64,000 nt of DNA from Enterococcus phage Revolver: the sequence record PV544177.1, one strand, 5' to 3'. The translations under genes were made by a program, and so were the position numbers. The notes beneath the pieces were generated by a model. That model searched no databases, was not told the DNA's origin, and worked only from the letters and a program-made list of their open reading frames with translations. Below, piece by piece: positions 4,462 to 7,744 of this stretch (the stretch's first letter is position 1; the number at the start of each line of letters is the position of its first letter).

Positions 4462-5256
4462 TTGGCAAGCACGGAAAAATACAATATTTTCGTACCTATT
4501 GATATTGAAAATTCAATCCTAAAGTCTGAGTCACAAGACGGAGGGGAATGGTATGTACAGGGGTATGCTACAACACCTGACCTCGACCTACAAGGGGACA
4601 TCATACTACCACAAGGAATAGACATCTCTTATTTCATTTCTAAGGGATGGATAAACTATGAGCATAAGAACGAAGCAGAATACATTATAGGAGCCCCTAC
4701 AGATAACTGCTATGTGGATATTAATAAAGGTTTATTTGTAGAAGCAAAATTAATGAAGGAAAACAAGCACGCTCAGTCAATGTGGAAACTAGCTAATGCA
4801 ATACAAAAATCAGGAATAAGACGTAATTTAGGATTCTCGATTGAGGGAGCAGTAGTTAGTAGGAATGCAAGAGACAATAGAATTATCGAGGCAGTAGTTA
4901 TTCACAATGTAGCGCTAACTACTCACCCGGCTAACCCACAAGCTACGTGGGAGACACTAGTTAAATCATGGACAACAGGTTATGAAAGTTCACCTGAAAC
5001 GCAAGTAGATGGTGGGGCATTGCGTAGAGAAATGTTCAAACAAGACATTACGAATCTAACATATGCAGTCCAAACTATAAGTAATTTATATGGTAAAAAA
5101 CCTGATGAAAAGGAGTTTATTCTCCGAGAAGTTGCAAAAAGTATTGAAATGGACACTTCTGAAAAGGAGTTAACTAAATTTATGTTACAATTAAGTAGAG
5201 GGGTATCTTACAAGGAAGCCTCCGCTTTTATAGAAGAAAGAGAGGGGAACAAATAG
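4462..5256 (+). CDS. prohead maturation protease (putative)
   Basis: 264-aa ORF (TTG start) between the portal and scaffold genes. Its C-terminal segment shares a 36-aa motif with the N-terminus of the capsid protein. Confidence 0.55.
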   Translation: MASTEKYNIFVPIDIENSILKSESQDGGEWYVQGYATTPDLDLQGDIILPQGIDISYFISKGWINYEHKNEAEYIIGAPTDNCYVDINKGLFVEAKLMKENKHAQSMWKLANAIQKSGIRRNLGFSIEGAVVSRNARDNRIIEAVVIHNVALTTHPANPQATWETLVKSWTTGYESSPETQVDGGALRREMFKQDITNLTYAVQTISNLYGKKPDEKEFILREVAKSIEMDTSEKELTKFMLQLSRGVSYKEASAFIEEREGNK

Positions 5257-6206
5257 TGGTTAAAACAATTAATGACGTTATCAAAGATTTTGACAATAAA
5301 CTAAATAATGCAGTCACAGAAACAGAAGAGGAAGACATTACGAAGTCTACCGAAACCGAGGAAGGTGCGGAAGAAACTACTGCATTAGATGAAGAGGTGG
5401 CTGAGGTAGCTGGAACAGAAGAAGACACTACAGAAGACACTGCAGAAGACACGGTTACAGATACAGAGGAAGCTACAGAGGAAGAAGTTACAGAAGAACC
5501 TGAATCTGTAGAGAAATCAAGTAAAGAGGACGAAGAGGACAAGGAGGAAGAAGAAGAGGAAGAAGAGAAAGACAAAGAAAAGAAAAAAGATAAAGAAGAC
5601 AAAGAAGAAGACAAAGAAGAAGACGAAGAAGACGAAGAAGTTAAAAAGTCCGAAGATGTCGAAGAACCTACAGAAGAGGTAGAAAGCCTAATTAAGTCGG
5701 CAGATTTACTAGGGGCTATAGAAATGGTATTTAAAAACTTACATGATGTTATTAAAACAAATGCTGAGTTAAACGATAAGTTAGACAAACTTTCTCAAGA
5801 GTTCCAAGAAGCTAAAGCTGTTAAAGAAGAAGTAGCAAAATCAGCTAACGTAGACACAGAGCTCAAAAAAGGTGTTGAAGACATTGAAGGTAAAGCAGTT
5901 GGATACCTAAATAAATCAATAGATGTTGAAGAGCCCGTAGAAGCTACAGAAGCTACAGAAGATACTACAGAAGTAGTTGTAGACGGTGAAACGGTGGTAG
6001 AACCTGAAAAAACTTTCTACGAACAGATTCAAGAAATTCGTACAGACTTCATAGAAACATATAAACGTGTATCACAATCAGGTGTAGCATCACGTGGTGA
6101 AATTGAAGAAGCTCGTCATTTATGGACAGGTCTTGTCGATGACGGTAGCGAAAAGACTAGCAAAGACTTAGAAAAAGTTAAATCATTTATCAATAAATTT
6201 AAATAA
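5256..6206 (+). CDS. scaffolding protein (highly acidic, coiled-coil)
   Basis: 316-aa ORF with a GTG start overlapping the protease stop by 1 nt. It contains long E/D/K-rich low-complexity tracts and predicted coiled coil, and sits between the protease and capsid genes. Confidence 0.6.
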   Translation: MVKTINDVIKDFDNKLNNAVTETEEEDITKSTETEEGAEETTALDEEVAEVAGTEEDTTEDTAEDTVTDTEEATEEEVTEEPESVEKSSKEDEEDKEEEEEEEEKDKEKKKDKEDKEEDKEEDEEDEEVKKSEDVEEPTEEVESLIKSADLLGAIEMVFKNLHDVIKTNAELNDKLDKLSQEFQEAKAVKEEVAKSANVDTELKKGVEDIEGKAVGYLNKSIDVEEPVEATEATEDTTEVVVDGETVVEPEKTFYEQIQEIRTDFIETYKRVSQSGVASRGEIEEARHLWTGLVDDGSEKTSKDLEKVKSFINKFK

Positions 6207-6239
6207 TTTTACTATATAGTGAACTATTTTAAGAACAAC

Positions 6240-6249
6240 TGCTATATTA
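6240..6249 (+). promoter_or_regulatory. late-promoter-like motif TGCTATATTA
   Basis: Exact 10-mer upstream of the major capsid gene. Confidence 0.5.
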
Positions 6250-6265
6250 ATAAGCAGAAAGAACA

Positions 6266-6308
6266 AAGACCTAACATTCCCTCCTGAACCTCCACAGGGT
6301 TAGGTCTT
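6266..6308 (+). other. 5'-UTR stem-loop of capsid mRNA
   Basis: Perfect 10-bp inverted repeat AAGACCTAAC / GTTAGGTCTT enclosing a 23-nt loop. It lies between the late motif and the capsid RBS. Confidence 0.5.
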
Positions 6309-6346
6309 CCTTTGAGAGGAATACAAGGAAAGGTGATAAACAAAAA

Positions 6347-7744
6347 ATGACAGAAAACAAAAATACAGAACGCCAATTAACTTCCGTTCAAGAGGAAGTA
6401 ATTAAAGGTTTTACAACAGGATATGGTATTACACCAGATACACAAACTGATGCCGCCGCTTTAAGACGAGAGTTCTTAGACGACCAAATCACTATGTTAA
6501 CATGGGCAGAAGGAGACTTATCATTCTATCGTGATATTACAAAACGTCCTGCAACATCAACTGTAGCTAAATATGACACTTATCTATCACATGGACGTGT
6601 AGGACATACTCGTTTCACACGTGAAATCGGAGTAGCTCCTGTATCAGACCCTAACTTACGTCAAAAAACAGTTAACATGAAATATGTTTCTGATACTAAA
6701 AACATGAGTATTGCAACAGGCTTAGTTAACAACATTGAAGACCCAATGCGTATCTTGACTGACGATGCTATCTCAGTTGTTGCTAAAACAATTGAATGGG
6801 CTTCTTTCTACGGAGATGCAGATTTATCTGAAAACCCAGAACAAGGTTCAGGTTTAGAGTTTGACGGTTTAATTAAATTAATCGATGAGCACAACGTATT
6901 AGATGCTAGAGGTACTAGCCTTTCAGAAGCGTTACTAAATCAGGCGGCGGTAATCATCGGTAAAGGTTATGGTACTCCAACTGATGCTTATATGCCTATT
7001 GGTGTCCAAGCTGACTTTGTTAACCAACAACTAGACCGCCAATACCAATTAGTAAGTGACAACGGACAAGACGTAACAATGGGCTTCAACGTTAAAGGAT
7101 TTAACTCAGCTCGTGGTTTAATCAAATTACATGGTTCTACTGTAATGGAATTAGAACAAATCTTAGACGAACACCAAATGCAATTACCAAATGCTCCACA
7201 AAGAGCAACCGTAAAAGCAACTGTAGAAGCAGGTAAAGGTAAATTCCGTGATGAAGATTTAGTGGCTCCTGTAGAATATAAAGTAGTAGTTGTATCTGAT
7301 GAAGCAGAATCTGCACCATCTGATGTAGCAACTGCAACTATCGATGACAAAACTAAACAAGTTAAATTAGAAATTACAGTTAACAACATGTACCAAGCAC
7401 GTCCTCAATACGTAGCTATCTACCGTAAAGGTTTAGAAACAGGCTTATTCTATCAAATCGCTAGAGTACCTGCTAAATTAGCTAATTCAGGTGTTATCAC
7501 TTTCATTGATACTAACGAAGAAATCCCTGAAACAGCAGACGTGTTCGTTGGTGAGTTAACTCCATCAGTAGTTCACTTGTTTGAATTATTACCAATGATG
7601 CGCTTACCATTAGCACAAATTAATGCTTCTGTAACATTCGCAGTTTTATGGTATGGAGCTTTAGCATTACGTGCACCTAAAAAATGGGCTCGCATTAAGA
7701 ACGTTAAATACATCCCAACAGCAAATGTCTTTAACGAACGCTAG
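6347..7744 (+). CDS. major capsid protein
   Basis: 465-aa ORF following the scaffold gene. The position and size fit the major capsid protein of large myoviruses. It is preceded by a late motif and a 5'-UTR hairpin. Confidence 0.7.
   Translation: MTENKNTERQLTSVQEEVIKGFTTGYGITPDTQTDAAALRREFLDDQITMLTWAEGDLSFYRDITKRPATSTVAKYDTYLSHGRVGHTRFTREIGVAPVSDPNLRQKTVNMKYVSDTKNMSIATGLVNNIEDPMRILTDDAISVVAKTIEWASFYGDADLSENPEQGSGLEFDGLIKLIDEHNVLDARGTSLSEALLNQAAVIIGKGYGTPTDAYMPIGVQADFVNQQLDRQYQLVSDNGQDVTMGFNVKGFNSARGLIKLHGSTVMELEQILDEHQMQLPNAPQRATVKATVEAGKGKFRDEDLVAPVEYKVVVVSDEAESAPSDVATATIDDKTKQVKLEITVNNMYQARPQYVAIYRKGLETGLFYQIARVPAKLANSGVITFIDTNEEIPETADVFVGELTPSVVHLFELLPMMRLPLAQINASVTFAVLWYGALALRAPKKWARIKNVKYIPTANVFNER

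Follow-up and report, generated by a model that had tools for sequence, protein, structure and literature searches.

In Enterococcus phage Revolver, the prohead protease and the major capsid protein (MCP) share a stretch of about 35 residues, which in each of them directly follows a conserved lysine predicted to mark a maturation cut. The 64,000-nucleotide piece of phage DNA in which this was found (record PV544177.1; 64 kb, hereafter the window) encodes a prohead serine protease of the S78/assemblin type (264 amino acids (aa), 4462..5256; phrog_1028, E = 7e-138) and an MCP precursor with the HK97 fold (465 aa, 6347..7744; phrog_752, E = 4e-200); all portal, protease, scaffold and capsid features given here lie on the plus strand. 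A docking or substrate-recognition role for the shared motif is plausible. The best reading overall, if an evenly poised one, is that it joins a cleavage site to a mimic of the capsid protein's N-arm, by which the protease would dock and from which it would be severed by self-cleavage.

A BLASTP comparison of the two proteins gave one ungapped match, between residues 164-202 of the protease and 16-54 of the MCP, with 20 of 39 residues identical (51%; E = 9e-10). The copies delimited from it are protease residues 169-203 (SWTTGYESSPETQVDGGALRREMFKQDITNLTYAV; 4966..5070), which score E = 3e-20 against a hidden Markov model (HMM) of the motif, and MCP residues 21-55 (GFTTGYGITPDTQTDAAALRREFLDDQITMLTWAE; 6407..6511), which would form the mature N-terminus and the start of the N-arm. 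An initial annotation, made from the DNA letters, had already put the similarity at about 50% identity, and this figure holds, as do the peptides that it quoted and its nucleotide coordinates (4957-6508). Its start residues were off by one, the peptides beginning at L166 and V18, and their length is 37 aa, not 36. The similarity also begins five residues further upstream than was noted there, taking in a Glu at P5, a hydrophobic residue at P3 and a Lys at P1 (P positions are counted upstream of the predicted cut, P' positions downstream).

The match recurs in 12 of 12 reference Herelleviridae (A155, EFP01, Listeria LP-048, Moonbeam, phi812, Twort, LP65, CP-51, SPO1, Bromius, Bc431v3 and the window), with E-values from 2e-13 to 3e-3, and the same pair is present in 48 distinct protease/capsid pairs taken from 93 loci. 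Alignment of orthologous pairs, which the initial annotation had proposed as a check, finds that the motif recurs in all 48 and that it co-varies. Profile-profile comparison of the two copies gives a probability of 99% (E = 6e-18). In PHROGs each protein also finds the other's family via the shared stretch, the MCP hitting phrog_1028 (protease; E = 1e-13) and the protease hitting phrog_752 (MCP); together with the BLASTP match, its recurrence and the profile comparison, these cross-hits rule out chance or low-complexity similarity. A PDB search with the protease returned solely the N-terminus of the phi812 MCP.

The window contains exactly two copies of the motif, the next-best E-value being 0.28, and a search of the 64 kb for a third, in the scaffold or internal head proteins, found none. 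Beyond the window, a motif-profile search of 1.84 billion representative proteins produced only 42 hits, which are capsid-like or protease-like bar protease-scaffold fusions (see below) and the unrelated repeat proteins P0122 and P0137; that the motif serves other proteins as a general tag was rejected on these grounds. BLAST of the CP-51 pair extends the alignment collinearly past the motif, as does hhalign, albeit weakly. Since hhalign of the tails alone, beyond the motif, gives a non-significant E-value of 0.22, no homology is claimed between the entire C-terminal domain of the protease and the first 100 or so MCP residues. A limited search of the literature found no description of the protease/capsid similarity; an earlier description is possible, and the novelty of the paralogy is accordingly provisional.

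Every one of the 76 MCPs and 74 proteases compared has Lys directly ahead of the motif, followed by Ser, Thr, Gly or Ala. In both proteins a Glu stands five residues upstream of the cut-side position and a hydrophobic residue three upstream, so that the cut consensus reads E-x-hydrophobic-x-K↓S/G/T/A, the arrow marking the predicted scissile bond. In the MCP of the window, a predicted propeptide of 20 residues (1-20; 6347..6406) would be removed at EEVIK20↓G21FTTGY…. K20 is invariant in the 76 MCPs and P5 is Glu in 67 of them, with propeptides of 16 to 38 aa. T24, G25, P30, L39, R40, E42 and L44, within the motif itself, are likewise invariant.

Homologues give experimental bearings on this site. 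The MCP matches the solved capsids of phi812 (5lii, E = 8e-201) and SPO1 (gp6.1; 9vel, E = 3e-44) in a PDB search, and the phi812 capsid chains of PDB entries 9row, 9rox and 9roz comprise 439 residues that start SFQTGYG…, which corresponds to Ser25 of the 463-residue precursor. Mass spectrometry of Bc431v3 virions yields MCP coverage that starts exactly at S34, with the peptide K.SFTTGVGITPDTQLDAAALR.R, and leaves residues 1-33 uncovered, and in phage K virions the SFQTGYG… peptide SFQTGYGITPDTQIDAGALR is among three intense assigned tryptic peaks. Database records label the A511 and EFP01 MCPs 'precursor'. By transfer from such homologues, we regard a cut of the MCP at K20↓G21 in this phage as highly probable. 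The mature capsid protein would then keep the motif as the start of its N-arm, only some 20 residues being removed, P5-P1 of the shared stretch among them. The initial annotation had held that the motif predicts where the maturation cuts lie; it does appear to mark a cleavage site, but the cut is placed at the N-terminal edge of the motif and not near residue 54. In the AlphaFold2 model, MCP residues 1-82 are unpacked on the protein's own body, with predicted local distance difference test (pLDDT) scores below 50, as would be expected of an HK97-type N-arm that contacts other subunits.

The protease scores 19.6 bits against the Pfam family Peptidase_S78 (PF04586), just below the 21-bit gathering cut-off, and its close homologues carry a precomputed match to that entry. 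The candidate catalytic residues H68 (4663-4665) and S126 (4837-4839, in a GFSIEG motif) are invariant both in the 12 references and in 74 homologues. An AlphaFold2 model built with these 74 sequences has a confident core at residues 25-168 (pLDDT 85-97), for which the top Foldseek matches are the proteases of Kaposi's sarcoma-associated herpesvirus (KSHV), Epstein-Barr virus (EBV), varicella-zoster virus (VZV) and human cytomegalovirus (HCMV), along with T4 gp21, at probability 1.0. The predicted P5-P1 residues of the protease (E164-T-L-V-K168; 4951..4965) lie on the last β-strand of the core, 162-168, and the predicted scissile bond K168↓S169, between nucleotides 4965 and 4966, therefore falls exactly at the domain boundary. 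K168 is invariant in the 74 proteases, with Glu or Asp at P5 in 69.

The motif copy thus lies outside the catalytic domain, from which a cut at this invariant Lys-Ser bond would separate it. Its first part, residues 169-187, is modelled as flexible or extended (pLDDT < 50) and its second half opens a long helix, 185-210; G173, P178, L187, R188 and E190 are at least 90% conserved. The remainder of the C-terminal domain (residues 204-264; 5071..5253) is modelled as a helical bundle, with helices at 214-227, 234-246 and 250-262, ending in LQLxxGxS, of which L242, Q243, G247 and S249 are conserved. Self-cleavage of the protease at K168↓S169 seems to us fairly probable. A putative further autoprocessing site lies towards the other end, where an N-terminal segment of 21 residues (4462..4524) ends in ENSILK21↓S22, with Lys at P1 in 60 and Ser at P1' in 56 of the 74 homologues; residues 1-22 have pLDDT values below 50.

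Further Lys-Ser sites are found in the acidic scaffold encoded between the two genes (316 aa, 5256..6206; phrog_1133), the presumed main substrate of the protease. It contains seven Lys-Ser dipeptides against 1.9 expected, and five instances of the strict pattern E/D-x-hydrophobic-x-K↓S against 0.84 expected; the MCP, protease and portal of the window have one strict site each. Scaffolds of all 12 Herelleviridae are enriched two to five times in Lys-Ser, in the same E-x-hydrophobic-x-K↓S context, and in those of SPO1 and CP-51 Ser follows 12 of 22 lysines. These sites are likely to map where the protease cuts, and the overall pattern would be the signature of an enzyme that shreds the scaffold and trims both the MCP and itself, as do T4 gp21 and HK97 gp4. 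The single candidate site in the portal protein (2632..4359; Pfam Phage_portal, E = 4e-20), ETVEK47↓GMNG (2758-2784, residues 43-51), may point to N-terminal trimming of the portal.

The positions that are invariant or nearly so are the same in both copies of the motif, namely Gly at P5', Pro at P10', Leu-Arg at P19'-P20' and Glu at P22', from which it follows that purifying selection acts on the protease copy. Although conserved, both copies are modelled as unpacked on their own domain, which suggests that they fold on a partner. Moreover, copies from the same genome resemble one another more than they resemble those of other phages. They share 16.7 of 35 residues on average, compared with 13.4 of 35 across genomes and 14.6 of 35 among the protease orthologues themselves. 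A permutation test over 19 dereplicated lineages gives z = 5.9 and p < 5e-5, a p-value that is optimistic as the lineages are related. The matching can be seen directly in lineage-specific variants shared by the two copies: AGYEV.P…GG..FR.ESL in SPO1 and CP-51, WETGY…PDEQTG in lineage L073, TTGHE.NP.EQ in L026 and DGGAIRRESL in a lineage, L094, with a fused protease. The covariation is concentrated in the extended part, P1'-P20'.

The explanation that we favour has two parts. The first is a maturation site, E-x-hydrophobic-x-K↓S/G/T/A, that would be recognised by the phage's own S78-type protease. The second is the first 35 or so residues of the N-arm, composed of an extended segment, [SG]-[FWY]-x-T-G-[YH]-x-x-x-P-[DE]-x-Q-x-D, and the start of a helix, A-L-R-R-E-x-hydrophobic. 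The whole module would have been copied to a position directly after the last strand of the protease's catalytic core and held there by selection. The protease and scaffold are separate genes, overlapping by 1 nt (the TAG stop of the one and the GTG start of the other form TAGTG, 5254-5258), so the protease needs its own means of incorporation. It would be built into the prohead and tethered there through its C-terminal domain, its N-arm-like stretch using the binding partner of the capsid N-arm, candidates for which are the scaffold, an adjacent capsid subunit and the arms themselves. Once activated, the protease would cut the MCP at K20↓G21, the scaffold at many K↓S sites and its own chain at K168↓S169 and probably K21↓S22, freeing a catalytic core of 147 residues. 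We infer in this scheme the cleavages at the bonds named, the protease's cutting of itself and the docking role. That the protease copy is a docking or mimic element, beyond a mere cut site, has in our estimate slightly less than an even chance. More doubtful is the strong form of the idea, in which the C-terminal domain is a true molecular mimic of the N-arm that takes the arm's site on scaffold or neighbouring subunits, co-evolves with it in each lineage and acts as a packaging signal.

Several observations weigh against this explanation. The cleavage positions in the window are transferred from homologues with 58-74% MCP identity. No direct evidence of self-cleavage at K168↓S169 was found in any member of the family, and peptides from the two protease halves, seen in traces in Bc431v3 virions, are not decisive on the matter. 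The helical half of the motif is paralogue-specific, with A-R-S in the protease against D-D-Q in the MCP, and the two copies are therefore not interchangeable throughout. Over short distances their coupling appears loose: between the window and EFP01, the protease copy differs at P7'-P9' (ESS against GIT) while the MCP copy is unchanged, and drift of the protease copy has left 9-10 of 35 identities in the Bc431v3/BCP78 clade. Finally, ancient and episodic gene conversion could mimic co-evolution.

The alternative that survives best, though we think it unlikely, dispenses with tethering and makes the motif an extended substrate-recognition element, in which some 20 residues after the cut would dock on the catalytic domain as a P'-side exosite, and the enzyme would carry a copy of its own only so that autoprocessing matches the processing of the capsid protein in efficiency. 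It would account for the way the motif abuts the cut site in both proteins, and for the concentration of covariation in P1'-P20', which is expected if both copies fit one enzyme. The many scaffold K↓S sites, however, lack a downstream motif, twenty extended residues exceed the length of the core domain, and AlphaFold2 with the 74 sequences shows no confident docking of residues 169-187 on the core. Conservation of the MCP copy is already explained by its retention in the mature N-arm, and in the Bc431v3 clade the protease copy diverges while that of the MCP stays canonical.

The distribution of the motif in relatives speaks for the explanation that we favour and bears also on a second, improbable alternative, that the protease's C-terminal domain is a relic, left over when part of the MCP N-terminus was duplicated or when an ancestral fusion of protease and capsid protein was cut at this junction, and is now a linker with an autoprocessing site. 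The portal-protease-scaffold-MCP layout of the window recurs in Bacteroides phage DAC23 and in MT835500, a contig from a faecal phage. At the N-terminus of their MCPs stand a K↓A site and an SPO1-like arm; their proteases contain K↓S sites, but no copy of the arm was found on the proteases of these two outgroups. The distant relatives L097 (DAC23; 3422-6413) and L012 (4465-7485) have the order protease-scaffold-capsid, with a K↓A site and a motif-like arm on the capsid protein and no copy on the protease. Judging by the two outgroups only, the arm seems to belong originally to the capsid protein, and its copy on the protease to have been gained in the Herelleviridae lineage. The module duplication that the initial annotation had offered as one explanation is right as to origin; it is not recent, the synonymous sites being anciently diverged and the protein sequence under purifying selection.

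Also in keeping with a relic, the protease core (residues 19-177; 4516-4992) matches phrog_617, 'major head protein', at positions 15-170 of 626. With the match confined to the first 170 or so positions, this suggests a family of protease-capsid fusion proteins, which would bear on the origin of the shared module, and the weak collinear alignment of the tails agrees with such an origin. Against it, P5', P10', P19', P20' and P22', all well away from the cut, are at least 90% conserved in the 74 proteases, which span the family, and are positions that a functionless relic would lose; the matching of copies within a genome needs ongoing constraint or conversion; and the tails by themselves are, as noted, not significantly similar.

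Fusions of another kind occur naturally among the relatives, in which protease and scaffold are joined in frame (P0117 and P0136). P0117 is found on 24 contigs, where it replaces the separate protease and scaffold genes, and in L094-L096 a single protease-scaffold open reading frame (ORF) of 503 aa (4850-6361) is present with no separate scaffold gene. The motif lies at the same place after the core in these fusions, with 61.5% identity to that of their own MCP. The C-terminal half of P0117 shows no significant similarity to the scaffold profile; it is its composition and the gene order that identify it as scaffold. The existence of such fusions makes tethering of protease to scaffold a viable alternative arrangement. 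P0135, considered as a scaffold with an N-terminal motif, was rejected: its frame is open upstream on a contig of 1 kb, and it is thus a fragment of a fusion.

Lineage-matched similarity might also arise by repeated gene conversion or recombination between neighbouring genes, rather than by selection for a shared partner, but this we consider very unlikely. In its favour, the copies are 1.4 kb apart in the same orientation, and deep lineages (for example SPO1/CP-51, LP65, L073, L026 and L094) each have their own shared variant. At the DNA level, on the other hand, the two copies of the window are 59% identical, and over 47 pairs the codons of identical residues coincide 336 times where codon usage predicts 362. 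Codon sharing being no higher than expected, recent conversion is rejected in every lineage, though older conversions may have taken place. Least tenable of all is the proposal of the initial annotation that the motif is a shared propeptide or targeting segment removed from both proteins, with the capsid cut near residue 54, for, although many large myoviruses remove an N-terminal segment of the MCP and a short propeptide of 20 aa is predicted here, the conserved cut site stands where the motif begins, MCP residue 54 has no conserved Lys-Ser-type site in its vicinity (KS dipeptides are absent from the MCP altogether) and the mature capsids of phi812, Bc431v3 and phage K retain the motif, which is therefore not a removed propeptide.

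A module shared by protease and capsid protein looks like a variant of known protease-targeting schemes. The herpesvirus assemblin precursor, of UL26 type, is cleaved at an R-site and an M-site and has a C-terminal tail in common with the scaffold protein. It resembles the present case in its protease fold, with the Foldseek probability given above, in the sharing of a sequence element between the enzyme and a second head protein, and in a C-terminal extension that tethers the enzyme in the procapsid until a self-cut just past the catalytic domain frees the core, as we propose here; release at K168↓S169 would be functionally analogous to cleavage at the R-site. In herpesviruses, however, the shared element is the scaffold's C-terminal MCP-binding tail, which is cut off, whereas here it is the capsid protein's own retained N-arm. 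The herpesvirus proteins come from nested in-frame genes with identical DNA, those of the window from separate genes with saturated synonymous sites, and the specificity is for Ala-Ser there and Lys-Ser here.

In HK97, according to what Duda, Hendrix and colleagues are said to have found, the C-terminal tail of the protease gp4 (Peptidase S78) targets the delta domain of the capsid protein, which is reportedly cut at Lys103↓Ser104. The protease family is the same, a cut at Lys-Ser again makes the mature N-arm, and a C-terminal region is used for encapsidation, as proposed here. The HK97 tail is, though, short and not reported to resemble the capsid protein, unlike the capsid-arm copy described here, and HK97 has no separate scaffold, its delta domain doing that job, while the window has a separate acidic scaffold and a propeptide of 20 aa. 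The capsid and scaffold proteins of Staphylococcus phage 80alpha are said to share an N-terminal cleavage motif that is also present in ribosomal protein L27. There, too, two head proteins share a short sequence that marks a maturation cut, but the shared part is the removed P-side leader, the protease is a host enzyme and it does not itself contain the motif. The module described here is not a removed leader of the 80alpha type, the shared sequence being present in the mature capsids of homologues.

The proteases of T4 (gp21) and of the giant phages phiKZ and SPN3US cut at L/I-x-E↓ and A/S/G-x-E↓ motifs, and T4 has a capsid-targeting sequence. As in the window, a short consensus recurs in scaffold, capsid and protease, and the protease is processed at both ends, which is predicted here too; T4 gp21 also has the fold that Foldseek matches to the core of the window protease. 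Their P1 residue is Glu, not Lys, and the T4 targeting sequences are removed leaders instead of copies of a retained arm. P2 gpO and lambda C/Nu3 are protease-scaffold fusions. These systems, like the relatives P0117 and L094-L096, follow the same logic of coupling the protease physically to the assembly core. The protease and scaffold genes of the window, by contrast, are separate save for their overlap of 1 nt.

How proteases enter the shell and are kept tethered and inactive until assembly is complete is known in detail for few systems, among them herpesviruses, HK97 and T4. The phages chiefly used for therapy and biocontrol of Staphylococcus, Listeria, Enterococcus and Bacillus belong to the Herelleviridae, and for this family the present results provide a consensus for the cut (E-x-hydrophobic-x-K↓S), predictions of where the mature capsid, protease and scaffold fragments begin and end, and a candidate docking element of the protease. 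Were the mimicry real, an enzyme would be linked to the lattice of its substrate in a new manner, which might also offer a handle for cargo loading into capsids. The stretch of about 35 residues would then be a portable, lineage-specific tag with which to load foreign proteins into the heads of such therapeutic phages as K, A511/P100 and phiEF24C, and self-cleavage at K↓S would provide a built-in release switch. Should the idea of mimicry prove false, the annotation of processing sites would still be a correct result.

The region is the head-morphogenesis module of a Herelleviridae phage, with the gene order portal, prohead protease, acidic scaffold and MCP. This order is identical in the 12 references, and in every relative, as in the window, the protease gene falls between those for portal and capsid. 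The best matches in DNA are Enterococcus phages of the genera Kochikohdavirus and Schiekvirus, at about 82% identity, and the MCP shares 90% protein identity with that of Enterococcus phage vB_OCPT_Car. The nearest cultured phages reach about 82% DNA identity, so the window may stem from a species or genus near Kochikohdavirus/Schiekvirus that has yet to be described. P0001, a protein with 100% identity to the window protease, was seen solely in Logan read-archive assemblies.

Past the capsid gene, a small ORF (7843-8103; Pfam DUF7349) ends in a Lys/Ala/Pro-rich tail, KKEPKEPKETESKKAPAKKAPAKKATAKDKKDKE, and a small ORF is found at the same place downstream of the capsid gene in most relatives examined. 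On the minus strand, a Ser-rich ORF of 186 aa (5228-5788) runs antisense to the scaffold gene; it mirrors the Glu-rich (GAA-rich) scaffold coding sequence and is unlikely to be a gene. The GC content rises to 0.43 at 16001-18000, inside an ORF of 1220 aa (15327-18986), compared with about 0.37 elsewhere.

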